A stretch of 64,000 nt of DNA from Amphiscolops sp. MND2022 (lineage: Eukaryota): positions 29,700,001-29,764,000 of the forward strand of contig OZ076409.1 of NCBI GenBank assembly GCA_964187785.1, in the 5' to 3' direction. The notes below the pieces were generated by a model that was not told the DNA's origin, ran no database searches, and saw only the letters and a list, made by a program, of their open reading frames with translations. The first letter of the stretch is position 1. Each line of letters begins with the position of its first letter. The translations under genes and the position numbers were made by a program. Shown here piece after piece: positions 13,291 to 60,003 of this stretch.

Positions 13291-13299
13291 GCTTCGGTG

Positions 13300-13885: not shown

Positions 13886-16785
13886 ACTAATTTGGGTCTT
13901 TCCAGTAATACAAACTGTTATTATGATTCTCACACTCAAGTTCGAGTTTCGCAGCAAACTGATGAACAAAAGAACACACAAGAACATTGTAGGCGGTCCA
14001 GTGTTTAAAAATAAAAGACATGTCGAACCAACAGTTGGAGAGAAGGAGGAAACTTGGGGATTCGACCAGAAGACGAATCTCAATTTCTTTTGCGTGCTGG
14101 CAGAGGGCGAAATTACACTTCCCGAAAAATACAGAGAGGAAGGAAACAACCGGTACGTGTTGTTAGAGAAATCCCTCACTGCCCTAGCGGAGCCGCATTT
14201 TTAAGGTCGAACGGTGCTTTGTTCATACATGGCAAATAAGAGTCGTCTAAGAATTGTTTGTAGATTTTGTCAGAAACCACAGTGCTAGGCTCACATGTTG
14301 ACATGGCAACTGCTGATACAGTATGTTTTTTTGGCAGAGACGAAATGCTTGCAAATATCGATACCGTATTTTTCATCATTCTGCTTCTGAGATTTCCGAC
14401 ATCCAATCCAGTGCTCAACACTGCTGAATACGCAAAATCCTGTTGAAAAGCTGAAAAAGTTGAAAAAGTTGAAAATTGTCTGGGAGTATGACTCGTTTCG
14501 TTAGTCCATCAGTGAATGATCTGATGGGAAGAAATTCGATGGAATTCATGTTCGTTAGTTTGAAAGAAATTCGTGAATCAACAAAAAGTGTTATCACAGC
14601 AGGGTAATGCCTTGCCTTGTTTAACCGAACTCTCACGTACCTTCCAAGGTGTCTCTTTTGTAAAATTTGTGTTGGTTAGGAATATATCGAAATTCTTGAG
14701 TCCGTTACTTGTACTTCAAGTTTTGACCATATACTTTGAAATACCATTGCTTATATTGGCCTGAATTGTGTATATTGATGTACAATTTGTTCAATTTGAA
14801 CGGCGTATTGTTCAAATAGGTGCCAGAAGGTATGTTTCAGAAAACGACAATGAATTCCGAAACTGCAATGGAGCCCAATTTATCTTTTAACAAAACGGCC
14901 GTATAAGGATTAATACAAAACTTGAGAATCAACATACTGAATAAAATTATTAGGATTGGTTTTGTGCATTTAAATGCAGTTTAACAACTCCAACGTAGAT
15001 GTGAGCTGTATTCTGCTTCGTATTATTTCTCTCCCGAGCTATTTCATGGTTTATAACCTATATCCTCGCTTGGTTTCAAAACATTCACAAGAAAGACAAG
15101 AAATGGTGAAAGTTCAATCAAGTACAAAACTATTTTCAGTGCATTCCCTTATTGAAAAGAGCGGAGTCCTGGTAAAATTTTGACGAAAAAGAAGCGACCG
15201 CGTACAATAGTGAAACCGTTTGCATAGTGTCATGGCCCGCTCCCAGCCTCAGCCGATGCACAACTTGCCAGAAAGGAATTCATAAGTTCGCAAGTAACAG
15301 AACCCAGGAAAGAAATTAATTCTTCTTCTTCACCCTGGAAAGAAACATTGAAAACAACATCTAAACCGGTAACCCCTACGGAGTTCAAATCTGAAATGAA
15401 ACAATCTCGCGAATAGGTCCAGTGAATTGTATTAGAGTAATAAAATAGTTGTCAAGGCTCACCGGAACTACAGTCCTGTAATTTAAGCAAATAATCACAA
15501 CGTAATAGCCACGCCGCGCGATAGGTTTGCTATTCTATATTGCCAATCTAACGGACCAATAGCGTCGCTTTTTGACTGAAGTATTTGCGGTCATGCCAAT
15601 CAGAACGATTTTATGACGTCACTAGCTAAAGAATTAAAATTATGCTCCACTGCTTGGCGAAATCCCTTCGTCAACCGCTTTCCAGCTATAGCTAATCTTA
15701 ATACACACGGGGACACTACAAAGCGATTGTACTATTGTGGCTGCGGAAATGAGAGCTCAGAGGCGGTTCAAAAGGAAGTTTTCATGAGAAATTCATATAT
15801 ATTTAAGGTTTTAGTTGGGTTCCTAATTGATAAATCCTGTACTGTAAGATGAGCCGTGAAACTATTGCTTGCTTTTTTGTCTGAAAATTAAGTCTCCTTT
15901 TCATCTCAAATGCCATAATCATACATGAAAAATTGTTTTCTTACAAAGCTCAGAACTACAGATGAACATTGCAACATGCCTTCAATCTGACACAATAGGT
16001 AATCAGAACTGCAACGTAAGGGCATTGTTGTGTGAATGGATGTTTTCCCTTTTGAATACAACCTTGTAATGACGTTTTCGTCAAAGTGTTCTAGGATGAT
16101 GAAATTGTCTTCATCGAATGCCAACTGGAGCAACACCATGTCTATGCAAATAATCGGTGCTTTGAATTAGTATTTCTTAAAGTGTGAAGTTTTCTATAGG
16201 GAAAGTTTCCGAGTTCAACCAAAAATAATTGGAATGTGTTATTCCAGCATCTTTTATTGCTCTTCATCAATAATTTAGTACTTTCAATTCTGAGTACTTT
16301 TGCTTCATTCTAGTTGCGTCACTATTTTTGCTAGACATACAATTGCATCGATCTTCCAAATTCCCAACTTGGAAATTGACTAATTGTTCATGCCGGTGTG
16401 CTCCCGTTGATGAAAAAGTTAAGTAGACTTTTATATTGCCGCCGTTTTGGAGTCCAAACAGGAAGTGTATTTGCCTGAACAAAATGATTTCCACAAAGAC
16501 CACGACTAAACGACGCGACTAGGATTTTCGATACCTGAAGTTTAGACGCCGGACTGAAATATTATAAGTCAATTGGGGTTATGTATGAACAAACCCAAAT
16601 TTTATGATACCTTGGAATTTTTAGGTGAGGAACCAAAGAAGCTAGAAAAGTATATATATGTAAAACTATGTAGAACTTGCCCTTAATCGTTTAGCGTTCA
16701 CACATATCGTTAGTCAGACGTTGAAACCAAACTATTTTCCTTTGAAGATTTTAATCTTTCAAAAGACCTTTCCTTCATTTGAAAA

Positions 16786-19700
16786 ATGACAACTAGAAAA
16801 TAAATGAGGAAAGCAGTTGAAGAGCTAGCTTCTCGGAGCCTAGAAACTCCCATAACTGAGAATAGCCAAGTCAAAACCCTCGAGTAAATCACATAGATCC
16901 GAGTAGCAAGTCTGAGTGAATCACCTACAGTTCACCCTGAAACTCTAGACGAGATCAAAAAACCTCTCAGAAAATAAGTCACGTCCGAACTCACTAAAAT
17001 TCTGGCTGGGAACCAAAAGAAATGCTAAAGTTGATGGTACCAGTTACTAAACAATCTAACAATCACCAGAAAACAGAATGCTTCGAATTGGAGACGGGGA
17101 AGGTTTTTCCTACAACTACATCAACAACGATAAAAAGATAAAGCGACTACTCAAAATAATAATCCGCAAACTAGTCGTAACATGGAGCCAGGAGTCCTCA
17201 GCGACTCTAAGAAATTGAGTACCAAAAAACGAAAACCAAAATGCCTGACGAGCCAACAAGCTAAGGACCGAGCAACAACGTCAATCAATTGTTCTGCCGA
17301 AAGCTCTAACAGTATCACTACGTGTCTTCTATGGTAAGTCTGGAAATTTTAGATTGTTTGAGGTCTTATTCAGAAATAACATCGAAATGTATCCTCCCCT
17401 CACTGAAATACAGAAAAGAAACTATTTTCACACGCTACTTCGAGGAAACATGCTCTAAGCGTATTGCAACTTGGATTACGCGAAAAAAAAATTGAAAAAA
17501 TAATAACGGCGTTCAAACAACGCTTTGGGGACTTCTAATCCACTGTCAAAGCAAGATGTGAGTGGAACGCGCTCCACTTTGATCCAATGAAACAAAAACC
17601 ACACCAGACCAGTTCCTAGACGCACTACAAAAAACCGCAAGAGAAGCGTTCGGACCAGGGGCGCTAAAATTCATAGTCAAAGCGATTCACGCGAATACGA
17701 TGGATCACGTCAAGACAATCCTCAACTGCATGTACCTCGGAGACAAACAATTTAACGACATTGTACTGCATTTGGAACAAGATAACTCGGATTGGGTGCG
17801 CCAGAAAAAACCACATTGGTACCGCTGAACGCTGTTGACACAAACTCGCGTAAAAAAGAGCCAAAACCAAAGAGGCTAATGTTTCCACTGTGACCGATAC
17901 GGTAACTTTTAAGCCCAATGGCGCAAATTTAGAAAAGATCGATGTCTTAAGACCAGAGCCAAAATTGGCGACGAAAACTCGGCTGAAATCCAGAAGCCCC
18001 AATGCGACATTGGTGAGAAAACTCAGAAAACAGAAAACTGCAGGGACGGAGCAAATGACCCCAGGAAAAAGAAACGACACTTCGCAATCCCGACACACAA
18101 AAGTAGAGAAAACCCTCTGCTCAAAACTGAAACTCAGAATAAAAAAACGCCGCATGTACGCTTCAGGGAAAGAGTAGACGCAAGGGCATACACAATCGAA
18201 GACCCCTCAAATCACTTCAGATAAGACTTCATTACTGAGTGCAATGAAAATCCTAGACATTAGAACGTCCGAACAATTTTGCGCACCAACGCGAGACATC
18301 AAAACAATCCAAAACAGCTCTCTGAATGGATAAACGAATCCCTTAATACCTACACGACTATAAACGCCTCCTGTCGGAATCCAAAACAGACAGAATTTAT
18401 GCCTATGACGTAGATTACCGATGCAATCCCTGGGACGAACCAGAATCTACGATAGCGAGTCCCTCTTGTTCAAAATCCACAACCAAAAACCCTCGAAGCC
18501 AAACGAAGTAAAAACAAAAATACCACAACCTCCGTCACGAATCCTGAAGAAGTCGAGAGCACACCCGATCAATTCCGCCATAACCTCGTCAACCTCAATA
18601 AACATAACGGAAATAGTCTACGTGGAAGACGAATCACCATCATTACACAAACCAGAGGAACGAACTACTGATATCTTCTCTCCTCCTCCACCTCAAACCG
18701 CACCTGTTACTCAACACTCTACCAACAATGATGATGACACATCGGAAAAAAAACCAACTCATCTACCACACGACCTAGACGCCATGAAAAAATTCATCCA
18801 ACACGACAAAGAAGACGTCTAATTTCCGTTGTTGTCAGCTATCACTCAATCAAAACCAAAGCCAAAATCGAAGTGTTAATAGACTCAGTGCGTACATCAA
18901 TGCCATTTGCAAAAGGGATACAGGAAAAATAAGGCATGAGGCCCAACACAATCCGAACGGAGAGCAAACACACAATACCGATGCAATCCACCCGGATCAT
19001 CCACTCGTCAATGTCTGTGACCAATGAGCACCCAATAACTTATTGTAGCCCACAGCCAGAGATAAACGGGTCGCCATCAAAATAGCCAATACCACAGATT
19101 TACTTCATACAGTAACACCAAACACCAAGTTGGCTGAGCTTCACATCTTCAAGCCTTACGTAACGAAATCTATACGACCAGTCGACATAACAGCACTAAA
19201 CCTACTAACCAATCATGACGACGTTGTAACGTATGTCAACGCACTCATGCAAGTCCGGAAGACAATCAAGAAAAGCTCTGGTTCCCAACCCCCGAAATCC
19301 CTGGCAATGAATCCAAACACTCTCCGATACAACAACGGAACCTCAAGGAATTACGAGCACTGGCTGGACTGGAAAAACTTCATGCCAAAGAGAACAAAAA
19401 ATCACACACCGAATTTCTATCCATCTTCAAGTGGAGCGATTTTTTTATTCACTGGAGGAGACCGTGGGAACCTTGAATCCATTTTAGTCGATTTCAACGA
19501 CATCATCGAACGACACCGACTAGACATCAGAATGAACACTCAATTCAAAGTCAGCTTAACGACAAAAGATGACAAACCCGTCTACATCCAAAGTTTACCA
19601 GTCCCGATCAATCTCAAAACAGATCTGACAGTAGAACTAGCACCGGTACGAATCCTTACCATGCTTTTTATCTCCACGCGCAACGCAAACCTGACGAAAA

Positions 19701-21962: not shown

Positions 21963-24900
21963 TCAAGAATGGTTCCGAACAACAGAACCCAGAGATAAAA
22001 CTTCATCATCATCAATATACAAAACTGAAATAAGCCTCACGATCGGCATCCTTCCATTTTTTTGGCGTCGTCTTCGAAGTACTGTCATCCCTACCTTTCC
22101 GTGTCTCAGCCGTCGAAGACGAGGCCTTGGTCTTCGCCACTTCAGCATCGTCCATCTTCTGTTTAACAACAGCACTCAGAGAACTAGTACTGCCGACAAC
22201 ACTCGGGCGCTGATCAGTCTGAGTTTGACTTTTAGCGCGGTTGAACTCGACATAACAATCCTGGCATGCTTTACGTCGCTGAGCTAAGAAGTTGACTCAG
22301 CAAATTCACTGAACAGGTTGATGTTCGTTCATCGCCACGGAGAACACACAGGTGTCTCCAATTGCTTCCCGCATCCAGAATTGGAGCCGTGAAAAATGCT
22401 TGATGCGTATATCCGAACTCATCACGTAAGTCTGCCCCGAACGAACACAACTGTCGAAATCTTCCTGCTCAAGAACACAACCAGACAAATCCAGAGACAC
22501 ACGTGGAAAATCGTTTCGAGCAGACGCAATTACAATGCAGCACAACTTGATTACTCGCAGAACAAGATGGCCCGACTGGGAAGCAAAATTGCCAAAGAGG
22601 AAATTCATCATGTTTGTAATTGTACTGGCAACACGATCGCTATCAACGCGTTGGCGACGTTTCTCGACGACATAACTGGTATATTCTTCAACTGCAGCTT
22701 TGGATACTTCTAACGGGACCACGCCGCAATCAACAAACAATTTACTTACAGATGTCAGAAAACAATACACACACGCCGCTGGTGTCCCTCTCCGAGAAGA
22801 TTTCAGCACAGAAACCAAATAATTCACGAGATATGCACGAGATTACCCTCCCATGAGTCACGATCTCATCAACAATGTGATCCATGAAGGTTTTAGAGCC
22901 GATGAGGAAATCACGGAACTCACTCGTCTTTCCTTCTAGAAGAGCTTTGTCGCAATCGTAATTGAAGAGCAAGGAATCAAGGGGTGCCAATGGATAGCGA
23001 TCAACTTTACCTGGGTCCATATACTCTTCCCATTGGTGAAAACTTGGCAATCCCTCAAGAGCACAAGTTTTAAGCAAGAAACAATACACGAAGTTGCAAA
23101 TCTCTCCGTAGCAACCGAAATCGTAATCATCATGGTGTTGACGAAATTCCCCAATATTGAGATGAACTGAAACACAACGTACCTTTTCCGTTATGACACA
23201 TCAGGAAAAGACGCGCACAGTGATCGCGAAAACTGAAATTATACAAAAAAGAGCACTTACATGTATCAAATATCACCTGTAAGAGTCCGAACATATGAAC
23301 AAGCAACTTATCGGCAATAACGTTCCAATCCGTTGCGCGCAACTAATACAAATGACAAAAAAATTTTGGTAACCAATAGAAAGGACTAAAAAACACCACT
23401 AACGCTATCAACTTTATCTTTCAGGTGTGGCAGTCCAGTGTATCGAACATGGGGGGTATTAAGGGCCAAAGGTCAATAAGGTCGCTCACTAAATTCCGCA
23501 AATCACTGAAGCTCACGGAGCCTTGCCTCATGCATTTACAGAGAAGCGGCTTCGCGTCCATCCAGTACTCATACAACTCGCACCTCAATCGTTGTACAAT
23601 GTATTCCACAAGCGTCACGAACTCCACCATATCGAAAATGTTTTGATTTGCACGAAGAAAACACTCTGGGAAAACACCTTCAGTGAACTGTTGGTGCACA
23701 ATGAACCGTCGCCAATCAACTCTAGACTCGCCTAACACCCGCAGCAAGGACGACTCGCCTCACGATCAATTAAAAGCAATTGCTGTGAATCGAAACGATT
23801 TTTCATCCGAGCCGTTCTGGAACCACCTCTGCGTCATGAGGTGACTGCTCAATACTCTGAGCTCAAGACTCTGAACGCCCATACACACCTTTTTGTCGTC
23901 CTCCCAGTAAATCACATAGCGGAACTCCTCTTCCGTACTCTTTTCGAACTGCATGGCATACTCTTTAAACACTGCATTGCTGCTGAACAGCAAATAGCGT
24001 ACTCGCGGCGCATGTCTTCGACACAGGAAAGACTAAAACAAAAACACCCTGAATTACGACAACAAAATGCAAATTTGAGTATATCCAAAAGAAAACTATC
24101 CTAGGTTTATTCAAAACTTCAGGGGAAAAAGAAAAAACACAACAAACACTAACCACAGTCTCCGGGCGACTCCGATGAATTGCAAACTTGGGTTCACGTG
24201 CACCCAGTGATTAGCACCACACAACCGCCGGAGCAACGTAAAATCCCCGTCACTTCGCAGGAGGTCACACAAGCTTGACACAAGTGTCATGGAGGGTCAC
24301 ATGGGGGTTCCACTCGTGCATCTCTCGGTACCAAGTTCTCGGGAAAATGAAAGCCATCACTCCACAAACGGACGGAAACGGAAATCCGCTAGCTGCTGGA
24401 CAGAGAGTGTCATCGGTTCCATCAGTCTGTTGTAAACCGGAAGGCCAATATGATTCCGAGACGTAACTTCCCGGTACCAGTGACCATCTGAGTAATAGTG
24501 CCCACAGAATTCCCCGGAACATTGCGCCTTCATGGCGACGTCCCTCTTACACACTTTACAATCGAAGTGTGTCTCACGTCCGCACTCCGGGCCTCCAACT
24601 AAATCGGCAAACAAAAGATTCAAACCCAGCCTGCGTTTAGACAGCATATTGCTACTTCTGTACTTCTCTGTCCTCTTTTTGCCCATATTGTCTCTAACGT
24701 TCTCGCTTAGCTCGTTTAAACATACAACACAAAACATATTCAGAAACACCGAAGGGACCGGGAAACAACCAAAGACCCACCCAGTAACCCCAACCCAAAG
24801 ACCCCACACAGAACAGCACATGGTTACTAGGACAAACCCACAAAAAACTGAATAAAACATACCGCTGTGAACTGTATGCATTGTCCGGCTTTCAACTTCA

Positions 24901-29300: not shown

Positions 29301-31838
29301 CATTGCTTATATTGTCCTGAATTGTGTATATTGATGTACAATTTGTTCAATTTGAACGGCGTATTGTTCAAATAGGTGCCAGAAGGGATGTTTCAGAAAA
29401 CGACAATGAATTCCGAAACTGCAATGGAGCCCAATTTATCTTTTAACAAAACGGCCGTATAAGGAATAATACAAAACTTGAGAATCAACATACTGAATAA
29501 AATTATTAAGATTGGTTTTGTGCATTTAAATGCAGTTTAACAACTCCAACGTAGATGTGAGCTGTATTCTGCTTCGTATTATTTCTCTCCCGAGCTATTT
29601 CATGGTTTATTACCTATATCCACTCATAGTTTCAAAACATTCACAAGTAATACAAGAAATGGGGAAAATTCTATCTGTTACAAAACAAATTTCAGTGCAT
29701 TCCATCATTGAAAAGAGGGGAGTCTTGATAAAGTTTTGACAACAAAGGAAGCGACTGCTTTCAATAGTGAAACTGTTTGCATAGTGTCATGGACCGCTCC
29801 CAGCCGATGCACAACTTGCCACGAGGGAATCCATACGTTCGCAAGTAACAGAACCCAACAGAGAAACTATTTCTTCTTCTTCACCTTGAAAAGAAACATT
29901 GAAAACAACATCTAAATCCGTAACCCCTACGGAGTTCAACAAATCTGAAATGAAACAATCACGCGAGTAGGCCCAGTGAATTGTATCACAGTAATAAAGT
30001 ATATGTCAAAATTCACTTAAAGTACAGTGTAGTAATTTAGGCAAATATTCACATAGTGATGTCCACGTCGCGCGATAGCTTTGTTGTTCTATATTGCCAG
30101 TCTAACGGACGAATAGCGTCGCTTTTTGACTGTGGTATTTCCGATCTTGCCAATGAGAACGATTTTTTGACGTCACTAGCTAAGGAATGAAAATTATACT
30201 CCACTGCGTTACCGTACTCCTTCGTCAACCGCTGGCCAGCTATAGCTAATCTTAATACACAAGGAAACACTACGGAACGATTTTTTTATTGTAGCTATTG
30301 TAGCTACGGAAATGAGATCTCAGACGCAGTTCATATGAAGGTCTTCATGAGAAATAAAAAAAATAATTAGGGTTTTAGTTGGGTTCTTACTTGTTGAAAG
30401 CTGTACTGTAAGACTAATGTTTGCTATTTAGTGCCTGAAAATAATGAGAGTCTCCTTTTCATCCCACGTTCCATAATCAGACAAAAAAAACCGTTAGTTT
30501 TACGTTGCTTGGGATATCCATTCTTGACTGATAGATGAACGTTTCAACATGCCTCAAATCTGACACAAAAAAATATTCAAAAATGCAACGGAAGGGCAAA
30601 GTTACATGAATATATGATTTTCCTTTTGAGTACAACTTTGTAATGACGTTTCCGTCAAAGTGTTCTAGAATGATGAAATTGTATTAATCGTATGGCCATT
30701 GGAGCAATACCATGTCTGTGCAATGAATCGGTGCTTCGAGTAAGTTTTTCTTAAACTATGAAGTTTGCTATACGGAAAGTCTTCGTTGTCCAAGTATTTG
30801 AGTGCGTTACAAATTGTAGGATACGACTTGTATTGATGTGTTGTATGTTTAGTTTAGATGTATTTAGGTCACTTTGAGTTCATACCAATAATATTTGGAA
30901 TGTGTTATGCGAGCATCATTTTTGCCTCTTCATCAATATTTTAGTACTCGCATTTCTGAGTATACTGTCTCCGTTCTAGTTGCGTCACTAGTATTGGTAG
31001 TTATACTTTTGCTTCGATATTCTAAATTCCCAAGTTAAAATGTGACTAATTGTTCATGCTGGCGTGCTCCCGTCGATGAAAATGTTCAGTTGACTTGTAT
31101 TTTGCCGCCATTTCGGAGTCCAAACAGGACGCGTACTTGCATGATCAATGATAATTTTCACAAAGGCGGCGAGTAAGTGGCGCGACTAGTAATTTCGATA
31201 CCTGAATTTTAGACACCGGACTGAGATAGTATGAATCAACTGGGGTTTTGTATGAAAAAACCCGATTTTCATGATACCTAAGAAATATAAGGAGAGGAAC
31301 AAATGATTCCAGGAGAGTATATATTTGCAAAATCATGTAAAGTTTGCATTTAATTGTTTCGTCATTGTTTCGTCACACCTATCCTTATTCAGACGTTGAA
31401 GTAGAACTATTTTTCTTTGAAGAATTTATTCTTTCCAAAGATCCTTCTTTCATCTGCAAAGTGACAACTAGAAGCCAACAGATAAAAACAGTTGAAGCGC
31501 TAGCTTCGCGGAGCCTACAAAGTCATAACTGAGATTAGTCAAATCGAGACCCTCGTAGCAGGTCCAAGTAAATCACCTGAAATTCACCCTGCAAATCTAG
31601 ACGAGATCAAAACATCTCAGAAAGGAAATCATATCCCATCTCACTAAAACTAAAATTATGGCTGAGAGCCAAAAGGAGATGCTAAAGTTGGTAGTACCAG
31701 TTAAAGAAAAACCTAACAATCACCAGAATATAGAAGACTCCGACTCTGAGACGGACAACGTTTTTCCTACAACTACATCTACACGGATAAAATCTAAAGC
31801 GGCTACTCATAAAACTCCTCCGGCAACTAGTCGTAACA
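26335..31838 (+). repeat. Segmental direct repeat, copy 2; ends in a family C LTR end not followed by PBS/gag
   Basis: Direct match to 11806-17182; homology stops exactly after gtcgtaaca at 31838. Confidence 0.95.
27830..28413 (+). pseudogene. Duplicate pPolB relic
   Basis: Near-identical to 13300-13885. Confidence 0.65.
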
Positions 31839-37183: not shown

Positions 37184-40100
37184 CTTCGTTCAAACCAAGT
37201 TTCGTCTCGAAGTTTTGGTAAATTTTCAGAGACAAACGTCTGGAAAAATACCTTTGGATAGACAAAAAATCTGGTAATTTGGTAACCGACCAGTTTTGAT
37301 GCCATGCAAAAATTTTTGAGTCATGTCAAAAAACAATGTAGCAAGGTACGCTAGTCGAAGTTGTCGCAAAATTTTACAGGCATCTTCAAAAAATGCCGGC
37401 TAACTTTTTATAAAACATGGAAAATTCAGGGACCACGCCTGGAAAAATTTTGTAAAATTAACAGGCAACGTATAAAATATTGCAAAATTACCAAGCAACT
37501 TGGAAAATGGTGGCAGCATTTCGAGGTGCTTTTAAAAAATTTCCCTGCAACATATAAATCATTTTTTTAAAATCGAAGTAGTGTCATCCGAAAAATTCAA
37601 CGAAAAACTCTAAAAACGACCTTTCCATTTGATCTCATTTCTCATTCTGACGAAGTCTAATTCCTTCAATAATGATGTCCTTGTAAAAAAATTATTAAGA
37701 ATGAAACTGAATTAAAATGAGTCACAAAATACAAAAACTATTGGGTCTTTCTGTCCCCCCCACCGCCAAAATTTTTTCAGGAAAATATACAGGAATAGCT
37801 TTTTCAATAAATTCTCGGCAACAAAACCACTTCAAAAACTAGCCTTTTCAAGATAGCTGCACCGACGAAAAAGATGATATGGTCTAAAATCACTGTATTT
37901 TTAAAATCTGTAAAAATTATTTCATAAGAAACAAAACCGTCTAAATCTAGAATTTTAAAGCCTATATAGAATTTCCGGAAGCGACTGCAATCATTTCATA
38001 GCATTCGTTGATGTAAAATAGAGCTATGAGATAACAAAACGCTTTGAAGTGCCATCAACCGCAAAATTGTTGCAGCAAAGTGATTTTCAAAACCAACATT
38101 GGTACCTTTTTAATAAAAAGAGATCGAATATTGTGTATAATACAACATATCTCTTCAATATTTGCTTTTGAAGTACATGCTAGAAACAAGCCTCTTTGTA
38201 AAAAACAATTGAATCAGTCAATGTGGGTTCTTTCAAAAACTGTCTCTACTTTCGCTGTCTTTATAAAAGAGCTAAAAATACTATCTGGTAAGTATCCCGC
38301 TGCTTTTTTCGTTTACTTGAAAAATTGAAAAATCTTACATTTGGAGCAGTTCTTTTTCTTCGAACTATTTCTGCCCGAAACTACTGGCAGAACTTAAAAG
38401 TTTTTTCCATTTGTTTGGAGGTTACTGCAAGCTGGGGTTGGGAAGCAGGACTACGTGGGTTCGAATTGCTTGCTGAATTGAATTTTTTTAATGTTTATCC
38501 TCGTGGGACGTTTCTGATGTTTTTAACTGGAGAGTCACATGATTTCAAACACGAAAACTTTTTTCGAAAACGAGGGCTCCTCAAAAAGATTTTTTGGCAC
38601 TGTGCGACTTCGTTTCTGAAAACAATCAATCCACCAAAAGGATTCTATTTTTGAGGCTCGAGCTTTGCGAGGTGCCGATATGGTGACGTTTTTTTCGCAG
38701 ATTTTGTAACATCGGCCAACTTTTTAAACTTGTGAGGCAAGTTTTCCACACTGAGAATAGATATGAATAACATGTCTTCGCTAAAAGTTGCAGAAGATCC
38801 TAGACTACATTTTCGTCGAAACAGTTTTCAAAAAATATCGGCTTCATGGTTTTTTTTGAAAAGAAGTTTTGAAAAAAGGCAATTTTCGAGTTTTTTATTT
38901 TTGATCCCCTATATCTCAGAACCAATACCAAATACAGAGACCATGGTTTCGTAAATTGTACAAGCATTCCATAGGCTACATTTTAGCCTCATATTGACGT
39001 CAAAATTTTTTTCATGCTCAGTTTTTTTGGGCAAAAAAGGCTTTAAAAATGTCGAAAACTTTTTCCTGATGTGTAGCTCAATTTCTTAAAAATGATGAAA
39101 ATACAGAACCCATTCCCCCTCAAGACAAACAACAAGGATGTAGACTAGTTACCGTCATCAAGTACTTGATTTGTGTTTTTAAAAATTTAATTAGTTCTTG
39201 CATACTTGAGCTCCTATATCTCAGGACCGACAACAAATACGGAGTCCATGTTTTCGTAATTTGTACGAGGGTTCTGTTGACTACGTTCAAAGCTAAAAGT
39301 GGCGTCGAATGTTTTCGCTCTGGTTTTTTTGAGCAAATTTTTCCAATTGAGCATTTTTTTCCAATTTTTCCCAATTTGTAACTGATTTTTCTCAGAACTG
39401 AAAATAGATACCAAAACCATTGTTCCTCACCGAGTAAGGCCAAGATGTATGCTAGTTTTTGTACTATCATCATTTCCGTCATCAATATTTTTATTCATTC
39501 ATTCAGCTTTTACTTCTTTCATCAAATTTTCCTGATCTGAGACTAGATAAGTTCACTAGATTTTGGGTCCTGGAATATACATAATCTTGTAGCACCTTCT
39601 GCAGACCATTGAAGGTTTCTGCTCGAGGCCAAGCGCGACATGCCGCCGCGCCTATGTTTTAAATTTTTCTGATATTTCACTCGGGATTGTTTTCGACTGT
39701 GTACTACTTTTTGGATTTGCTTATCACTAGTTGGCCTCCCTGCTGTATCTTCTCAAATTCAGTTGTTTTAAAACCATTCAGAGACAACGTCTCTTTCTAC
39801 GGTAACTGTGCTTTTTTGACGTCAATTGGGGAATATATTAGATCTTGTCTGGAAGAAAGTGGTTTTTGAATTTGACTACTTCCAAACTTTTGAAAAAACG
39901 ATTTAATATGCGGTTTATTAAAAGGTTTGACGTTTTCTTCCGAATTAAATTATGACAAGTAGAAGACGGCCCTTGTTGAAATTGCCTGTACTTTTTGCAT
40001 GTTCTTCAAAATTGCCATCAACTTTCAACAAGATCCTCTAAAACTCACGGAAACTTTCATGCGGAATCATTTTTATGCTGTCTTTGACTTTCATGAAGAT

Positions 40101-41274
40101 GTCATATTTGGCGTCATTTTTGAACCTTGCAATTTCGGTGGTTTCACCAAAGAGATCTGATCTATTTTCAAATGCAACTAGGAAGCTATCAATTTAAAAG
40201 CCATTCAATGCAAACAATTTCAATGACGTTATACACTGCCAACTAGCGTAATGTTCAGCGTATCATTTGAGAAGCAGTGATTATCTCAGATGAAGAATTG
40301 AAGAGTCAAAGTGTGATCATAACGTGGTCGTGTCAGTAACGAAGTGAAAAGTATTTTCAATTTTTTTAGAATAGCGGAGACTGCAACAGTGTAGTCCTTC
40401 AAAATTTGAAACCGGAAATTTCACCGAACTTTCTATTTTTCCCTGAAAATTACTCTGCATGCAGGCCTGCAGTGTGTAAAAAGTTCCAGCAGTATCGATC
40501 AGGGGTAGAAATGTTTTTTTTAACCGAGTAGTTCGGGTCCCTGTATGCATGAACTACTTTTCAGATCCGTATAGTTATTTTCAATTGAGATTTTACAGTT
40601 CCTCTTTCTTTCCTTGACAATTGAGAGTTGAAAGTGTGCGGCTTTTCCCTGAAGGCGACTTGTGACAGTATACGATCAATTTTGCAGTGCCATTTCTAGT
40701 TCCCGGTCTAGTTTTGTTAATTTTGTTCGGCAGTTTTCCTTAAAAAAGGTAAACCAAATCGTTCTGGTCATTGGGTACTAGCAGGTGGTAATCGCATAAA
40801 AGCTTCACAATATTTTAAATGGGCACCAAATGTTATTGTTAAATGGATACGGACGTTGTTCAAAAACTTACGATTTTCGAAATTCGGTACAAATTTTGAA
40901 ACATACGACCCGCGAATTGTTCAAAAAAGCATTTTCTCTGTCTGAAATTTAAAAAATGGGGCTGAGAACTTTTGTTCCGAATAAACTCTGCAAATAGAAT
41001 CAATATCCGGCCTTGATTATTTGTCTTTCCTATTTCATTTTTGAAAGGAAAAAAATCTCCCAGTCGCGTTTTTGTTCAGAGATTGCCATGTTCCAACTTC
41101 ATACTCTAAAAATAGTTGATCCACATAAAGTTCTTCCACAGAATATAACACTCAGGTAATTAGGTTTGTAGCTTATGTATTTGTGAATCAACAACAAAAC
41201 AATTAATTTCTTAGCATACCCTCGATATTGAAATTTTATATTTTTTGTTTAAAATGCACTCAAAAGTGTCAAAC

Positions 41275-42050
41275 TATTCATTTTTCCCAACTTTTCGGGC
41301 AATTTTCGTTGCAGGCTAAGCTCGAGCCCTGAGGTATTCTTTTTGCTAAAACGATCCATTGAGGGCTGAAATTATCTCTATGCTCAGCAGGCGTCTGATA
41401 CTTACTCAAAGTAGTTCACCAAAAATTGTTTATGAAAGAAGGTACACCAGGGGGGGGCTTTTGACATTTCTCTACTACTGACCCGGGAACGACAGTGAGA
41501 AATTAACTTACAATGCCATTTTTCTTTTACAATGTCTTGAATAATACTTTGGATATAAGAAAAAAATTGAAGTAGAAAAAGTCTCTTCTGATCTGAAAAC
41601 TAACCCTGGTTGACAAAAAATGCATTCCTTGCAAGGATCTTGATTGTTTCCTTGAAAGATCTTGCAAGGAAAGCGTTTTTTGCAAGGTTCTTGCAAGATC
41701 CTTGCAAGGAATGCATTTTTTGTCAACCAGGGTTAGTTTTCAGATCAGAAGAGACTTTTTCTACTTCAATTTTTTTCTTATTTTCATAGAATTATTTAAG
41801 ACATTGTAAAAGAAAAATGGCATTGTAACTTATATTCTCACTGTCGTTCCCGGGTCAGTAGTAGAGAAATGTCAAAAGGGCCCCCTGGTGTACCTTCTTT
41901 AATAAACAATTTTTGGTGAACTACTTCAAGACGCCTGCTGAGCATAGAGATAATTTCAGCCCTGAATGGATCGTTTTAGCATAAAGAATACTTCAGGGCT
42001 CGAGCTTAACCTGCTACGAAAATTGCCCGAAAAGTTGGGAAAAATGAATA
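41275..42050. repeat. Long imperfect palindrome (arms ~365 bp, short spacer)
   Basis: 41275-41640 is the reverse complement of ~41695-42050 with scattered mismatches and one small indel. Confidence 0.95.
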
Positions 42051-42774
42051 TTTGCAAGGAAATTGTTTCCTTGAAAGAAGGTATAATAACTTCACAAGGA
42101 GTGTAACGACCAAGAATTTTTCTGAAAGCAAACGGTCACTACCATCAATTTCGATGTGCAGATATTGTGCAAATGTTCAAACTGTCAATTTTGCAAAAAT
42201 TTCACCAAGAATGCAAAAACGTAGCCAAAACGTAACTTTTAAATTTTTGAAATTTTGACTCTCTTACACTTTTTTGATTTCGAAAGTATTTTAGTAAAAA
42301 GTCTCAACATCTCGAATCTTACAAAACATTTTTTCTCTCAGAAAAGTTGTAAATAGTATTAGTATCAGCTTAGTTCAAGATTTCCCATTGAATCCGGAAT
42401 CAAAAACTATCAGGAGCTTCGGTAAAATCAGGGCGTCGAGTGAACACAAAAGTTTGAGCAAAAGTATACCAAACGTGGAAAAACCTTGAATTTTTTCAAG
42501 GAAATTTTTCTCCTTGAAAGAATCTTGCAAGCAAATGTGTTCCTTACAAGAATCTTTCAAGGAACTTTTTGTCCTTGAAAGAATCTTGAAAGGAAACATT
42601 TCTCCTTGGAAGAATCTTGCAAGGAAACTTTTCTCCTTGAAAGACTCTTCCAAGGAAATTTTTCTCCTTGCAAGATACTTGCAAGATGTCTTGCAGAGAA
42701 TTGCATTAATTTGCAAGACCTTGCAAGAAAATCTTGCAAGATCCTTGTAAGGAACGCATTTTTTTCAACCAGGG
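41604..42774. mobile_element. MITE-like element with TIRs CCCTGGTTGA(A)nTGC and internal TCTTGCAAGA repeats, rearranged
   Basis: ccctggttgacaaaaaatgc at 41604; gcatttttttcaaccaggg ending 42774; related truncated copy at 62219-62375. Confidence 0.7.
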
Positions 42775-43274
42775 AAATCATGCTTTTATGTATATACAGT
42801 TGCGAACTGGCATATTTGGAAAATGTATTTGTGCCTTCATCTTCGCAAGTTGCACTAATGGTTCCGCATTAGCGTTAAAAATTCGGATGAAATGCATTTT
42901 CTCGTTACATGTTGAACCAGAAAAGAAAATGGATCATCAAAAACTAGACAACCTGGTGACAAAACCTGGTGACAAAAATACACAGTGCCGAGAAATCTAA
43001 AAGGTCTCATTCATAATTTTTAACATACCCACAAACGTAAAAGAATCAATTGGAGCCCTTTGGCTTCCCTGGACGCAATATACATCTTAGGTTGAATTAA
43101 CGAGCCGGGAAAAGGCATAAATTGTCACCACGCCAAAAGCTGCAAAAGTACTTCAAAGTTTAAATGATTCTCTTTTCAATTATTACTCAATTTCACAGTA
43201 CAGAAAAAACAAAAGGAAACTTTTTTGAAATTACGAAGGCTTTTCGGCTTTTATTTTGACCAGAAAAATCAATG

Positions 43275-44340
43275 ACTTCGCATATAACGTTAAAAAATCA
43301 GATAAACGGCAATTATTTCGAGCCTCCGTCTCCTCCTTGTTAAAACGATATCTACTTCGGATGTAACGTCCAAAAATTGGATATTTTCACGTCCAAAAGA
43401 TTTTCAAAATTCCGGGTCCTTTTTGTAAAACGCCAATAGCTTCGGATATAACGTCAATAAATCGGATAGAGAACCATTTTTCGCACTTCCGCCTCTTCGA
43501 CAGTAAATGCAATTTACTTCGGATTCAACGTCAAAAATTCGCATTCTGTACAGTATTTTTCAATCTCCGCCTCCAATCTTAGTAATGCAAAGTACTAAGG
43601 ATGTTACGTTGAAAACTCTGATATAGAACAATATTTATGACACATCAGCCTCCTGCGTAGTGAAATGCACTTTACTTCGAATATACCGCCAACAATTTAT
43701 CGCACAATACCTTCGAGCCACTGGCTCCTTCTAGGCAAAACGCGAAATATTTCGTACAAAACGTCAAAAATTCGGATGAAGCACATTTTGTTCGAACCAC
43801 AGGCGCCTTCTTAGTATAAAAGCAAACTTACTTCGGACTAAACGTCAAAATTTTCGTATAGATAACTATTTCAAACTTCCGTCTTCTCAACAGTGAAACG
43901 CAATTGACTTCGGATATATCATCGAAAATTCGGACATAGTTCAATACTTTCGAACCCCTACCTCTTCCTTAGTAAAATGCAATTTACATCGGGAATAACG
44001 TCGAAATTTGGATAAAGCACATTAGTTTTGAACCACTGGCTCCTTCGTAGTAAAACGCAATAAATTATATCGGGCGTAAGTTCAAAATTTCGTATGAATA
44101 GCAATGTTTTGGATTTCTGGTTTCGCCACTGTAAAACCCCATTCATTTCGGACGTAACGTCAAGAGTTTCGATTTAACGTTCTCTTTTAGAGCCTCTGGG
44201 TCACTCCCCGTATTGACACAACTTACTTCGGGTATAATATCAAAAAGTTCGGATTTATTTCAGGTTTCCGAACCTCCGCCTCCTTCTTAGCACATCGCAA
44301 AATAACTTAGTAGTTACTGATAGTACGTCAGAAATTCGGT
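43275..44340. repeat. Degenerate minisatellite, ~78-80 bp unit, about 14 copies
   Basis: Core acttcggatataacgtcaaaaattcggat recurs at ~43440, 43517, 43595, 43675, 43750, 43831, 43908, etc. Confidence 0.85.
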
Positions 44341-52740: not shown

Positions 52741-55663
52741 ATGATTTACAAACTCTGGCAGCGGCTACACTCAAACTTTTGACTATCTGTCAAAACTATC
52801 ATGTGCCAAACTTCGACATTGTTTGCTCAGAACCCGGAAAGTGTTGAAACGAGAAATGATTTTTCATCCGTTTTAGGGCTCAATTTCCGATGTTTAGATT
52901 ATCATTTTGAAGACTTTTTGGTACTACTGGAAACTCTGACACCTAAATGGCAATTACAGAAACTTGGATGACAGAAAATGACCCATTAGAAGAATTTCAA
53001 ATCGATGGATACCAGCCCATTGTTTCGAATCCTCGTAAAGAATTTAAACGGCGATCAGGCAGGCAGGGTTGCTTTCTATATCAAAGAAGGAATCGAATAT
53101 GAGCCAATAGAAACTTGCATTGATATTGAGTGCCAGCTAGTCAAAGTGAAATACGACCACGATTTAGTCAAAGTTTTTTGTGTAATCTATCGTCCTGATA
53201 CCTTTCGGCTGACAAAATTTTCCCCAAAATTCGAGGAGCTTCTGTTTTTCCTAAAATCACTCAGCTATGAAATTTTTGTATTCGGTGACTTCAATATAAA
53301 CACATTATTCACTGATAAAGACAAAGTCAATTATGGAAATCTTCTCAATTCATATGATTGCAAAATACAGAATACTCTACCAACTGGAGTTACACCATCA
53401 ACGAAAAGCTGTTTAGATCATTGGATTGCGAGTGATGAGCTGTACACGCAAACGATTGAAACAACTATAAGTGATCATTTCACTGTCGCGGCATCAATTC
53501 CTCTTACTTCTCGTAAATCATACAAAAAGATCTGGAAAAGAAAAAGGTCAGAAAAATGAAGAACTTGAAAGGCGATAATGCATTGAATTTTCTCTTCCTA
53601 CTCGATCAAAAGCTTAAAACAATACAATCAACATCATGCCATGAAATGCGAGCCCAGATGATGTGCGAAAAAATAATTGAATGTATCGATAAGTTTGCAC
53701 CGGAAAAAGAAGTTGTCATCAAAAATGAAACGAACTCATGGATTACCAACGAAATCAAAAACGCAATGGTCAAACGAGATTGCCTCTTCCGGAAGTGGGT
53801 TGAAAATCCAAACTCCAAAAATCATATCGAATATAACAATCAACGGAATGTAGTAACCCAAAAAACACGACTTACAAAAAAGGAAGCTAATTTCAAAAAT
53901 TAGGTCCTAATCCAAGTCCAAAACATATTTACCGGACGTTGAAATCAAAAAAACTTCAACAAATGCAACAGCATTGTAATGTTTTGCCCGATCTTGACCA
54001 TTTGAATAACTACTTTGTGTCTGTTGGTCAAATTCTGTCATCCAAGTTACCTACATTTGAGAACAATGCTAAAATCGCCAACAATAAGGAAACCATGTTC
54101 GTGTATCCCACTGATGAGTTCGAAGTTTCGAAGATACTTAAAGACATGAAAAACAAGAAGAGTACTGGTGAAGATGGGATAAGTAATGAGATGTTAAAGG
54201 GTTGCTCTCCCATAATAGAACCTCATATTGCAACATTGTTCAACAACTGTATTGAAGACGGGATTTTTCCCGATTGCTTCAAAACAGCCAAAGTAATACC
54301 ATTACATAAAAAGGGTGATCGCAAATACCCTGGGAATTACAGACCAATCAGCCTTTTAAGTTCATTGAGCAAAAATTTTGAAAAATTGTTGCACAAAAGA
54401 ATGATGAATTTTTGTGAGTCCAATAACCTTTTACATGGAGCCCAGTTTGGGTTTAGATCTAAAATGTCTTGCGTTCATGCCATTACCACTGTTACTGAAT
54501 ACATAAGAACAGCTATAGAAAACAAGCAGTTAGATCAATCTTGTTTTATTGATTTGCAAAAAGCCTTCGATACACTCAATCATGAAATACTTTTATAGAA
54601 AATGGAAAATTATGGTTTCAGAGGGAAAATCTTGAGCCTTATTGCAAGTTCTTTAAAAGACAGGCGTCAATTTGTATATCACAATGGGAGAACCACATCA
54701 AAACGACTGATTACTACGGGTGTCCCACAAGGATCTGTGTTAGGGCCATTTCTTTTTCTTTTATACATAAATGATCTACCGACAATCATTCAAGAAAGTC
54801 AAGTAACCATGTTTGCTGATGATACAAGTCTCTTGAAAAGTGGGAAGAAAGGCGAACTTTTATTACAACCAGATGTTGAAAGATTGTCAAACTGGTTCAT
54901 TAGTAACAAATTAACCATCAATGTCGGGAAATGTGAAATTATTTCATTTGGCATTGGAGCTCCACAAGAGCCTCATATTTTGGAGAAACCTTTGACCTTT
55001 AAAAAGTCATGTAAATACTTAGGGCTGCATCTAGATGGATCTTTGAGATTTCGTGAGCATATAGATTATGTTGTTAAAAAACTCAAAAAGTTTTGTGGCC
55101 TAATTTATAGAATACGAGAGCAATACACCAGGTCCTCGCTCCTGATGTTCTATAATTCGTTTGCCAAGTCTGTCATAAGCTATGCTTTATTATTGTATGG
55201 GACTGCTGCTAAAACTAATCTAATGAAAGTTGAAAATGCTCAACGCAGAATTCTTAGAGCTATTTTTTTCAGGCGAAAGTTCGATTCCTTAAACAATATC
55301 TGGTACGAACACAAGTTTCAGACTGTATTTGAAATGTATATATCAGAATTGATTGAAGAGATGTTAAAACAGATTAGATTGGAGTCTCCTGTACTATTTT
55401 TCACGCCATATGCATGCAAAGAGTCCCATTTACCAACTCGTGGGAGCTCAAGAAACAATATTCCCTCGAAATATTATAGGACAGTCGTCAAGCGTAAATG
55501 TCTTGAAAATTCTTTTCGGAAAGTTTATAATTACTTGTTGAACTTGGATTTGATACCGCAAAACTTATTGAAGATGACTAAATCAGAAATGAAGTCATAT
55601 GTTGACAGTATTAGTCTATTGTATGTACGTGAACACAGAGAGGTATTTTCATTGTTTTTTTGA
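52741..55663 (+). pseudogene. LINE ORF2 endonuclease-reverse transcriptase with a few stops/frameshifts
   Basis: VIYRP, FGDFNI, CLDHW, SDHF (APE); NYRPISLLS, QFGFR, DLQKAFD, GVPQGSVLGPFLFLLYINDL, FADDT, KYLG (RT). Confidence 0.95.
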
Positions 55664-57901
55664 GTATTGGAATATATATTCGATATGAGAATGATCTTGC
55701 CAAAATCTTGGATCTGTTTTCTGTAAAAAACAAGTTTCTAGGGTTTCCTTTATTCATCCACTTATCGGGTTCTAAGGGCAGGGACTTGACGAGCAGCCTG
55801 CTCTTTTCCTGTCCTGATTGGATACGTTGTAGTTACATTCATATGAAAATCATCTTTATTTTTATGTATCTTGTATATCCAATGAAATTAACTGTTCTGT
55901 TCTGTTCTAAATATTTCTTTCAAAAGTGCCGTCAATGTTAGAATTGTTCGCCTTTGAAATACGGACAGAAAAGTCTTGAACTTATATTACCGAAAGCGAT
56001 TTACCTTATATTACGTTAAGGATATTATGTTTGCGATGAGCGTTTCTATTCATTTCATCTTGCTTTGTCAGTCAGGCTTGGCAATTTCTGATCTTTCAGA
56101 AACGTAATTATTTTTGTCTTCAAACCAATTGCCGAAAAATTAAGAACAGAAATATTTAAACGAATCAAAACCGACGAATTAATCAAAGGATTATATCAAA
56201 GAGCTTGTTTGAATGACCAATAAAGCTTTGAAAAGGTTGAAAAGAAAAATGACATGAAAGTTGCTGAAGAATGCGGAATTTCGGAAAATGCCAAAGAATC
56301 GGAGACTTCACAGGGCAAAGATGCATATGTTTAGCTGAACAACTTTCTTAGAAATATGAAGTGGATTTGTTGGTTGTAAACTTCGCAGCGGCTCTGAAAT
56401 TATGCAAACAAAAATGCAGTCATTTTTGCCCAAACTGTTTGTGCAAAGCAATCACTCATAGCTACCAATAGAAAAATGTGGATTCAAACTGAAATTGAGT
56501 TCCTACCTCTAAAATGTTAGACAAGCTAAGTGTAACAACTCAACCCCAATAATTTTTGAGTCTTCAGGTATGACTTTTCGAGTTCACTTTGCCTTTCAAC
56601 TTTTTTCGTTATTTTCTGCTCTATATCTTTATTTCTAAGTTATTTCTAAGTACAGCAGAAGGCAACATCTCACGGGAGTTTTTTGATCATCTTTTGGGCA
56701 GAGTTGGTACGGAATAACATCTTCAGTGATATTGAAATTTAAAAGTTGTTACCGCGAGACTGATTAGTTCATTGTGTAAAATTTTTCCTTTAGGCAAGAC
56801 AGGTGTGATTTTTTGAAATTATTTGACAATCTCAGAAGAAATTGGAAAATTTTTTTAAAGTTGAAAAAGTTGTGTCAGAAAAAATCTCAGTACACCTCAA
56901 AAGTTACTGCAACAATGCAACCAATGACAGGCGATACAACATCGAAATGATTAGATGACATTTCGTCCCCCTAGTGGAAAAAATCGCATCTTTTGCAAAA
57001 TTTTTACAAAAAATTTAGTTGACACTAACTATCACAAAATTCTTGCGAAATTTGCGAATTTCAGCTAAAATGGTAGAAAAAATGCATAAATTTCACAAAA
57101 TTTTTCGAAATTTGCATTGTTTGAAAATACAGTGTTTTTAATCGGTGTTTTCGAAGGAAATGCACGACTTGTACAGTGGCTTGTTTTTTTTTCCTCAGTT
57201 CAACGTGATCGGTCTACTTTTTTGTTCATTTGTTCAATTTTTTGGCCAGTTAATTTTCTGGGGTCTGAGAAGCAGGAGAGCGTGGGTTCGAGTCTGGCAC
57301 TAAACCACAAAATTTTCTTATGCTTTCAAACGTAGAGGGGAGACCAATGCGATTTTTTGGGAAATTTTTGAATTCTTTCAAAGGGTACCCCTTGAATTTT
57401 TTGAAGCTTTCAGTTTGTAAAAAAAACGTTTTATGAGCCCAAAGGTCTTCTCTTTTTGGGTTTTTCGGCAATATGCGACTTTTTTTACCAAATACTTTTT
57501 AGAAAAAAGTTTTTCCCAAAGGCAAGTTAGTTTTTTCTGATGTTTCCAGTTCAGAAAACAAGGTGTTTTCGAGTTTCGGGGAAAACCCTTTCGGATATTA
57601 TCGGAACCGTGTGATAATTGAAAAATTTCACCATACTTGTTTTTTGGATATTTTTGAGCCTTCGATATGACGCCGACTTGGGCAGTTCCCGGCTTGTTAG
57701 ATCTAATTCTATCAAAAGACGGTGACTTTAGACCCTATCTAAGTAAAATAAAATTTTTTAAGAACTTATTCCATCTATCATTTGTTTGTTTCTCCATAAC
57801 AGTTTTTCGCTAGGGAATAAAACGGCTGAGAAACTTGAAGACTGTTGAAGAGGAAAAATACAGGGCAATACACTTTCAACTTATGCAATTTGAACCGTTG
57901 C

Positions 57902-59216
57902 TGTCATACCGGATGGTGTGAAATACAACAACTGAAAGATGAAGTCATCACCAATTGCCCAAACATTTCAACTATAAACAATTTAAAATACATGTAATAT
58001 CATATAACGGACGACTGTACCATTCAGTCGTCACTCCAATTTCACCTGTGCTACGAAATACAAAATTGTGCTAAGCAACGACCAATACTATTAGTCGTCG
58101 CAACCACAAACCAAACAATTAAAACAGAAATCTCAGGTGCACTTTGATCTCATCTTTTGTAAAATACAGAAATATGTTTCTCTTCACCTGATTTACAGCA
58201 ACGACTAAAACATGTAGTCGACTTTAGGAACCCTTTAGTGCAATACATTATTCATTCATGTAACTTTAGTGCATTACAGTATTCATTCATGTAAACGACT
58301 GGTATATCTAGTCGTATTTTAACCGATATGTACATGCAGTTCTTCATATCCAAATCATTGATACTTCAGTTACTAGAGCATCGTTTAGTTCATATACGGT
58401 CATTTGTGTTAATTTCTAGTAAGAAGCACCAACAACGACTTCGAACACTAGTTGTCATTTGTGCTTAGTGCGTTAAAATTGCTAATTGGGAAAATACTAC
58501 CAGTAATCAAGTACAGTAATTATGCCCAACAGTTCGATCACTAGTTGTAAATTAGTACGTACTGTGATGTTGTGAGATCAATGATACGTGCTGGTGCGAC
58601 AACAGAAACTCAAACGCTACAATGGCAATTAGCGACGACTGAAGTGACCAGTCGTGTAATGTACCATGAGGCGATAATAGCAGGTTGACCAAAAAAGTTG
58701 AGTGAAAGAGACGCAAAACAATCAAGTGCAATTACCAAGTAATTAGGAGTTTGAAGGTGCTATTGCAATATAGAAATTCGACAGATGAAACTTATTACCG
58801 TGAGATACAGACGTACTGTAAATGCACTTTGCAAAGTTTCACTACATTAAAATCATTTCTTTCAATTCAATTGACTCAAACCTTAACTTTTCCAACAATG
58901 GTAAATACTCGATCGAGATACAATAGAGAGAGCAGAATTGAACAGTCCGGAATAGATAGATATTCTGATGAAGACGACTACATGAGTGTAGCGGACCACT
59001 ACACTGAGGACAATTTCAACAAAGACATCGAAAGTGACGTGAGATCTATAGAAAGGGATCATGAGAAACACAGGATTGAACAACGTTTCCTGGAAATGAA
59101 CCGTCAACTTGGAGAACTCACAAGTATAGTGAGAGCCCTTACTGATAAACTAGCTAAGAGTAGGGAAGAGAACGGTAGAGACGTACTAAATTCTGAGACG
59201 TCGACACGTTCTGACA
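57902..59216 (+). mobile_element. Solo LTR, family E (1315 bp), with intact 106-codon gag-like ORF start (58898 to LTR end)
   Basis: TGTCA...TGACA termini flanked by perfect 5-bp TSD GTTGC (57897-57901, 59217-59221); ORF MVNTRSRYNRE..IEQRFLEMNRQLGELTSIVRALTDKL. Confidence 0.9.
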
Positions 59217-60003
59217 GTTGCCATTTCAACCGCTCAACAATTTCATTTTACTGCAATTTCAGCTTTCTGCAACTTGGACCTACACCTCATCCTCAGTGAA
59301 ACGTTATTTACTTCAAATATAACATCAAAAATCCGAACCTGTTCGAAATTTTTAAGACTTCGATTTGTGTCAGTCTCGACCTAGCAGGTACCAAAAATCA
59401 GTTGAGAAGACGGCGCACGACAAGAGAAACAACCCGACCGAAAGAACTTTGAAAAAGTAAGAAGATACTGACGGAATAAACCACGAATACCTAGTGTTAT
59501 GCCAGTTCTTCCAGAACATCCCTCTGACCGTTTGGCAGAGATGCGGACACCCCCGGAGCACGGAAGGAAGGTACAACCTATCTAGGACTGTTTCGCAGAC
59601 CTGAAACGTTTTGATATTGATGCAAATATTTGTACTGATTCAATTCGTGAGGTATTAATGCTAATTTGACGATGTCCGATAATGCCGGATATGTTAGGTC
59701 CCCTAATTCCGTCATTTAGCCTTAAAAGAATCTACTTCCGCCTAATACATTTTTGGACCTCGGAGCAATGTATGAAGTCGCAGGAACCTTAGGCATCGTT
59801 TTTACATGCTTGTGGGACGTGTCCGGGCTTTGCGTATGCTGGCACGTCGCCGTAGAGGTCTAATTGAGGAGCCTTCTCGACACTAGAAAAGCACCCATAG
59901 GGTTCTTTCGGAGGAAAAGCGGGCGTCTTGTTAGTTTTGATTCGTCTTTTTTTGCGCTGTGTGAACAGAAAAGGAGATACGTTCATTCTATCGCATTCAT
60001 TAG

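Follow-up and report, generated by a model that had tools for sequence, protein, structure and literature searches.

A solo LTR of a likely Ty3/gypsy family with the beginning of gag inside its 3' part

Solo LTRs are usually regarded as non-coding promoter debris, and the gag gene of Ty3/gypsy elements normally starts after the primer-binding site (PBS); shorter or similar overlaps between LTR and gag have been described for some insect gypsy elements. A 64,000-nt stretch of the Amphiscolops sp. MND2022 genome (contig OZ076409.1, positions 29,700,001 to 29,764,000; hereafter the window) consists of repeat-rich eukaryotic DNA and contains an LTR-like unit at 57902..59216, in which a gag-like reading frame leaves the 3' end and runs on into the flanking DNA. 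The question raised by this locus is whether the unit is a genuine LTR with the beginning of gag inside it and, if so, whether such a frame still has a role once it stands in a solo copy.

The unit and its reading frame

The unit (1315 bp, + strand) begins with TGTCA, ends with TGACA and is flanked by the direct repeat GTTGC, read at 57897..57901 on the left and at 59217..59221 on the right. It lies in a short degenerate repeat (57870-57901, 59217-59280), and the tail of one related protein (P0097) encodes a similar repeat in another frame, possibly pointing to a shared type of target. According to the original prediction, the perfect target-site duplication (TSD) and the TG..CA termini define the LTR; both the coordinates and the TSD proved exact, but they do not define it by themselves, as 34 pairs in the 64-kb window share these features (a TG start, inverted ends of 5 bp and a 5-bp TSD, at a spacing of 100-3000 bp). 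The TG...CA ends and a TSD within the 4-6 bp range are present at 57902-59216 and are weak evidence when taken alone. A TGTCA..TGACA pair with a 5-bp direct repeat at 37582-39957, rejected as a chance occurrence in a sequence of unrelated mixed repeats, served as control. The 5' boundary of the unit is backed by the TSD and the inverted end alone. No PPT-like (purine) tract was seen upstream of 57902 and no PBS downstream of 59216, nor did tblastn with the full Gag as query recover other parts of the family within the 64-kb window, so the unit is a solo copy and not the 3' LTR of an element. Searches in viral contigs and in metagenome contigs did not find DNA of the same family.

The frame opens at ATG 58898, the first in-frame ATG after a stop approximately 64 codons upstream, and comprises 133 codons on the + strand up to a TGA at 59297-59299, with the coordinates originally given for it. 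Its start lies 319 nt before the LTR end; the LTR holds 106 codons and the first base of codon 107 (58898..59216, + strand), and the remaining 27 residues (107-133) and the stop derive from the host flank (59217..59299, + strand), a read-through tail without likeness to Gag from residue 107 onward. The description of the frame as gag-like was borne out as well: residues 1-106 share 71% identity with a 517-aa Gag (P0004) and 83% with a second relative (P0001), and the 517-aa Gag matched the Pfam families zf-CCHC (E 2e-5) and Retrotrans_gag (E 7e-4). Relatives of the window ORF made up 55 of the 58 candidates of near length and 10 of the 117 longer ones, the latter including two 517-aa proteins with zinc knuckles. 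After residue 106 the 517-aa Gags read MVTG, and the window protein turns into unrelated sequence. The Atlas neighbours of the Gag were of the zf-CCHC/Retrotrans_gag kind, the Atlas search with the 106-aa head returned unnamed matches alone (all below 0.9), Pfam gave nothing beyond a weak UPF0449 row for the 133-aa ORF, and Rfam no credible match. Judged by these protein comparisons, the 106 LTR codons are confirmed as the N-terminus of a 517-aa zinc-knuckle Gag. An accessory gene of the nef or sag kind in U3 was rejected, as the frame is continuous with gag at the 3' end of the LTR.

The junction in relatives and the placement of the family

The 124 related proteins fall into 53 that read on into Gag, 48 that part from it after residue 106, 22 that fail to cover the junction and one that stops short of it. 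Since the LTR ends one base into codon 107, copies in 3' or solo LTRs must have a codon starting with A at residue 107. This residue is compatible with such a codon in all 48 diverging copies (background frequency in these tails 0.415, p ~5e-19), being T, S, N, R, K, M or I, of which R and S have other codons too. The 3' boundary of 57902-59216 is thereby fixed at the last A of the LTR, and by the proteins of relatives as well as the DNA of a sister family (L001) it corresponds to the LTR/PBS junction. The last bases of the LTR (xAC A) and the PBS (TGG) make up the codons for D/N/H and Met of the Gag junction motif, as with an LTR end of ACA the residue ahead of this Met can only be D, N, H or Y. 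In a set of 146 more distant proteins, 28 had the junction motif together with a preceding residue, which was D/N/H in 27 (background 0.135), a count to be taken as a pattern and not as an independent test, as the families are related and one row (P0227) was probably mis-picked; the others were called from the junction Met (8), had no motif (42) or had no anchor (68). The 14 Gags picked for apparently whole N-termini, some with uncertain starts, have 96-126 residues before the junction, and in related families about 96-129 gag codons lie inside the LTR. To judge from the sequences compared, the deep inset of gag in the LTR is a clade-wide layout, given that the sister family and a decayed element of the window show the same junction.

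The sister family is represented by one locus, obtained from 84 pattern matches in a scan with the wide Gag alignment, and has the order RNase H-integrase (2-2071), minus-strand ORFs, purine tract, LTR, PBS, gag and protease. Its LTR (1792 bp, TGT 7949 to ACA 9740) is preceded by a PPT and followed by the PBS TGGTGACAGGAGT, and its gag (541 aa, 29% identical to the Gag of the window family) starts at 9353, i.e., 388 nt or 129 codons inside the LTR, as a separate ORF followed by the protease (E 0.002). The expectation that the frame continues through the PBS into gag was therefore realized both in the proteins of full-length relatives and in sister-family DNA, and the claim that the unit is an LTR stands, its 3' end being the junction in relatives and the PPT-LTR-PBS order of the sister family agreeing with it. 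A tRNA-Leu was called for two of the six loci that match the PBS complement beside a T-loop motif, which is a lead only. Other observations on this locus include ORFs without a name on the minus strand, situated after pol and ahead of the 3' LTR (3275-5741) and common to the decayed element of the window (~23000-24900, minus strand); one of them has a zinc-finger-like motif, and none matched a Pfam family at the curated level. A 239-aa plus-strand ORF (7309-8028) crosses the purine tract into the 5' end of the LTR, which is overlapped by coding at both ends, and the locus itself is a tandem internal-LTR-internal array.

The decayed element of the window (element 2) was assigned to the same clade by tblastx. 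Its first LTR (15167..17182, + strand) is preceded by a PPT (15154-15166) and followed by the PBS-like TGGAGCCAGGAG at 17183, and its 3' LTR (29723..31838, + strand) by position follows a second PPT (29710-29722). The element has the same junction, and both LTRs hold a broken gag head, extending from ~16786 to the junction in the first and running into the flank in the other. At the DNA level the solo LTR is unlike the LTRs of both L001 and element 2, and no match to the Gag profile was obtained with the element-2 gag head, so the families are linked through their capsid region and the junction. Within 11806-17182 and 26335-31838 of element 2, the 3.4 kb leading up to the LTR are 96-100% identical between the two segments, and the LTRs only ~76-87%; the arrangement is that of a tandem or recombinant element, with recent duplication or gene conversion as candidates. 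Elsewhere in the window, a decayed gypsy-type element with RNase H and integrase (1-10000) has env-like remnants that match a Monjiviricetes-type fusion glycoprotein (4574-4942, E 5e-5; 5775-6107, E 0.0025). Further features are a frameshifted LINE with endonuclease-like and RVT_1 ORFs (53005-55663), a long MITE-like inverted repeat (41272-42053), a 79-bp tandem array (43264-44248) and tRNA-derived SINE-like copies (at 12889, 27417 and 57254); ARAGORN called no tRNA genes in the 64 kb.

Several traits were considered for the superfamily placement. The Ty3/gypsy order of pol (PR-RT-RH-IN) was found in the sister family only, a close pol relative (P0298) having RT at 241-406, RH at 471-600 and IN at 802-971 by Pfam, and the best PDB match of the sister-family pol was Ty3 Gag-Pol (E 1e-39). 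A PBS after the 5' LTR and a PPT before the 3' LTR are present in L001 and in element 2. A Gag with two-lobed capsid and CCHC knuckles is indicated by Pfam, and the P0004 model had the capsids of dArc1, PNMA2 and Arc as its top Foldseek rows (E 0.002-0.02, with no row reaching 0.001), which, together with the RT-RH-IN order of the sister pol, resembles Ty3/gypsy elements (Metaviridae) with an Arc/PNMA-like capsid. BEL/Pao elements have BEL-type protease and integrase domains and usually a single gag-pol ORF; no such Pfam family was detected at E 0.001 in P0298 or P0276, and gag of L001 is a separate ORF, which speaks against this superfamily. The Gags do match DUF1759 (E 5e-5 and 1.6e-7). The family of the window LTR is likely Ty3/gypsy by these comparisons, in which we infer its PBS and pol from related proteins and L001, and 57902-59216 is confirmed as a genuine solo LTR with the Gag head of this likely Ty3/gypsy clade in it.

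Signals, predicted structure and decay of the Gag head

Upstream of the frame, pattern matching located a TATA-like motif 131 nt before the ATG (58767..58772, + strand), and motif matching a candidate ATTAAA poly(A) signal 52 nt before it (58846..58851, + strand). Comparable TATA-like motifs occur at -197 in L001 and, in element 2, at about -136 in one LTR and -143 in the other; an AATAAA lies at -61 in L001, and over 330 nt no such signal was found in either of the decayed element-2 LTRs. The borders between U3, R and U5 are set by motif matches of this kind, with a poly(A) signal seen in just two of the four LTRs. As the candidate signal lies upstream of ATG 58898, the ORF would fall in U5.

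We propose that gag is read in frame over the LTR/primer-site junction from an ORF situated in U5, downstream of the TATA-like motif and the poly(A) signal. The genomic RNA would carry the gag-head ORF once, at its 5' end, strong-stop DNA would copy it into both LTRs during reverse transcription, and LTR-LTR recombination would leave it behind in a solo copy. In a solo or 3' LTR the frame would continue into the flank until a chance stop. The copy in a 3' LTR would lie beyond the poly(A) site, and that of a solo LTR would be transcribed only if the poly(A) signal were bypassed, as in the 5' LTR. The segment would be under selection in active elements as a disordered and coiled-coil head and would decay after insertion. 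We consider it quite probable that 57902-59216 is a solo LTR of a likely Ty3/gypsy family in which gag is in frame across the junction and the solo ORF is a passive by-product.

In the AlphaFold model of P0004 (mean pLDDT 59), residues 1-43 are disordered, 41-88 form a single helix and 88-133 a disordered linker, followed by a helical capsid region (~162-325) and the knuckles. The capsid helices begin near residues 162-171, and the LTR part, which stops at 106, ends ~55 residues short of them. A trimeric coiled coil is predicted for residues 56-88 (59063..59161, + strand) from the helix of the model, the heptad score and a trimer model. The heptad score of the window head was reached by 0 of 300 shuffles, those of four other families by at most 9 of 300 and that of L001 by 27 of 300. 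The trimer model of residues 38-92 scored 0.42 (best of three controls 0.02), with 100% contact agreement between runs and pLDDT of at least 77. In the microbial part of the calibration, the mark used for this score was passed by 21 of 30 solved homo-pairs and by none of 23 single chains; for eukaryotes the figure was 17 of 29 (7 of 16 in animals), and among eukaryotic pairs without an older relative only one of seven. A three-copy job is unlike this calibration, and the pass may reflect likeness to known solved coiled coils. The LTR-encoded Gag head is thus predicted by modelling to be a disordered segment with a trimeric coiled coil and no capsid.

The original prediction proposed a comparison of ORF retention with the neutral expectation. 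The window copy differs by five residues from the nearest other insertion and by two from a copy with the same flank, and for 2-5 changes the neutral survival of an intact frame is 0.27-0.91, depending on the assumed indel rate. The intact frame therefore requires no selection and fits neutral decay. In seven copies a stop or a departure from the frame occurs between residues 59 and 77. The read-through tails have a median length of 19.5 codons vs. 14 in random flanks (p 0.06), a difference to which gene calling contributes by favouring longer tails, and 26% of random flanks stay open for at least 27 codons, as the window tail does. The suggestion that solo LTRs make truncated or chimeric proteins is accordingly not supported so far, with a frame that fits neutral decay and tails that match random flanks.

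Substitutions common to at least four copies avoid the coiled coil at 56-88 (10 of 64, p 0.003), which would be as expected of selection in active lineages. Private changes were compared in 75 copies at ≥62% identity under four thresholds, with an expected helix share of 0.31. In LTR-only copies, 9 of 46, 4 of 32, 4 of 29 and 3 of 18 changes fell in the helix (p 0.06, 0.014, 0.029 and 0.14), and in Gag-continuing copies 16 of 42; this comparison was post hoc, small and at the protein level, and it did not tell 3' and solo LTRs apart. The depletion in LTR-only copies may be read as a hint against pure neutrality, one that older unsampled subfamilies would produce equally.

Precedents, competing readings and meaning

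The cited reports offer several systems for comparison. As the original prediction stated, gag of Ty1 starts in its LTR by a few codons only: with a 53-nt 5' UTR and the PBS at nt 95-104, ~14 GAG codons precede the PBS (PMC5454406). The uniqueness this implied for a deep inset was too strong a claim, because the first in-frame ATG of Tca5 of Candida albicans (Ty5-like, Ty1/copia) lies 382 bp into a 685-bp LTR, leaving ~100 codons inside (PMC4139406); that report calls the inset unusually deep, leaves the start unsettled and mentions very few solo LTRs. Tca5 resembles the window family in the ~100-codon inset of its coding start, but belongs to another superfamily and has a single ORF, a tRNA-iMet primer and a low copy number, whereas the window clade combines a clade-wide inset with a predicted coiled coil and many LTR-only copies. 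Ty1 shares with it a GAG start before the PBS, a coding PBS and a disordered Gag N-terminus, which in Ty1 is needed for assembly and is accompanied by a prion-like domain at residues 66-136 (PMC10372613); it differs in having just ~14 codons ahead of the PBS and its prion-like domain outside the LTR. In the literature searched, mostly without subscription and older papers, we found no report of a deep gag inset in a Ty3/gypsy clade, and the accessible portions of PMC13524379, PMC4402516, PMC6451197, PMC11117352, PMC12471100 and PMC4202319 do not describe gag insets.

The original prediction also suggested a dominant-negative restriction by truncated Gag. The Ty1 restriction factors p22/p18 and the factor DRT2 consist of the C-terminal domain of the capsid and are produced from an internal start (PMC10951436, PMC13709905), and the likeness to the window family lies in the idea of a Gag fragment that acts in trans on its own family. 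A factor of this type was rejected, as it requires the capsid C-terminal domain and the LTR part ends at residue 106, ~55 residues before the capsid in the P0004 model. The p22-type route fails in this way, and the predicted coiled coil gives the idea another one, since truncated human LINE-1 ORF1p with N-terminus and coiled coil (98-157 aa) suppresses L1 in trans, fragments of 132 and 157 aa having been observed to pair with the full protein (PMC5605252). The truncated ORF1p is similar to the window Gag head in size and make-up, the coiled coil being a predicted one here; it belongs to a non-LTR element and arises from chance stop codons, whereas the cut in the window family is set by the LTR end. 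By analogy, truncated ORF1p would be the better counterpart than Ty1 p22, and with this precedent a restriction by the Gag head would be mechanistically sound.

The reading as a solo LTR with a passive ORF has to be weighed against others. For 57902-59216 being a truncated element, or a TSD pair that frames a gag fragment by chance, one could cite the 34 pairs of this kind in the window and a 5' end with no second copy to confirm it, but 48 independent insertions leave Gag at the same base and the PPT-LTR-PBS order of L001 places the LTR end at this junction, which makes this extremely improbable. Recruitment of this insertion as a 133-aa chimeric host gene is equally improbable: a second copy with the same flank tail (P0070) has kept its frame too and an AATAAA follows at 59475, 176 nt after the stop, yet between these copies 2 of the 106 LTR residues and 1 of the 27 tail residues are not the same, the tail is of unremarkable length and AATAAA occurs at chance density in the window (133 vs. 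125 expected). Hardly more credible is a true Gag start at the ATG of the LTR/PBS junction, with the upstream frame open but untranslated. The junction Met is nearly invariant, the eight distant proteins mentioned above were called from it and the true start of Tca5 is likewise unsettled (PMC4139406). Any CA|TGG junction creates an ATG, however, so that its conservation follows from constraints on LTR and PBS, and the upstream frame retains its ATG and its length of 96-129 codons, has a heptad pattern in five of six families (at most 9 of 300 shuffles, against 27 of 300 in L001) and includes the helix avoided by shared substitutions.

A stronger role for the solo ORF would be that transcribed solo or 3' LTRs make a Gag head of ~110-180 aa, whose coiled coil joins full-length Gag without bringing capsid or knuckles and so poisons assembly according to the number of LTRs. 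We regard this as unlikely. It would draw on a predicted coiled coil that is entirely LTR-encoded, the score of the 38-92 trimer model against its best control, the suppression of L1 in trans by truncated ORF1p (PMC5605252), the at least 48 LTR-only ORFs and the weak depletion of private coiled-coil changes in them. Against it, with the candidate poly(A) signal placed before the ATG, a transcript from a solo copy has to read past this signal and terminate anew in the flank; the trimer pass may reflect likeness to solved coiled coils, given the one in seven that passed without an older relative; and the depletion fades at the strictest threshold, is post hoc and could stem from older unsampled subfamilies. 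Moreover, copies broken at residues 59-77 exist, and the known Ty1 factors act via the capsid C-terminal domain instead. In its general form, the proposal that a Ty3/gypsy clade keeps an oligomerising Gag head in U5, each 3' or solo LTR being a promoter with a dominant-negative fragment and copy-number control growing with the number of solo LTRs, is one to which we likewise give a low probability.

Each solo LTR of the clade carries Gag coding sequence of ~100-130 codons, in which a predicted self-binding helix is encoded. For annotation, this means that short 'genes' of such genomes are in many cases the ends of LTRs, of which at least 48 distinct ones were found here. The layout also opens the idea of trans-inhibition to a direct test in a retrotransposon of animal type. 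Should the fragments prove silent, it would be a neat variant of architecture, for which yeast Tca5 and Ty1 provide precedents; if the Gag head does poison assembly, the debris of past insertions would limit the family's own activity.
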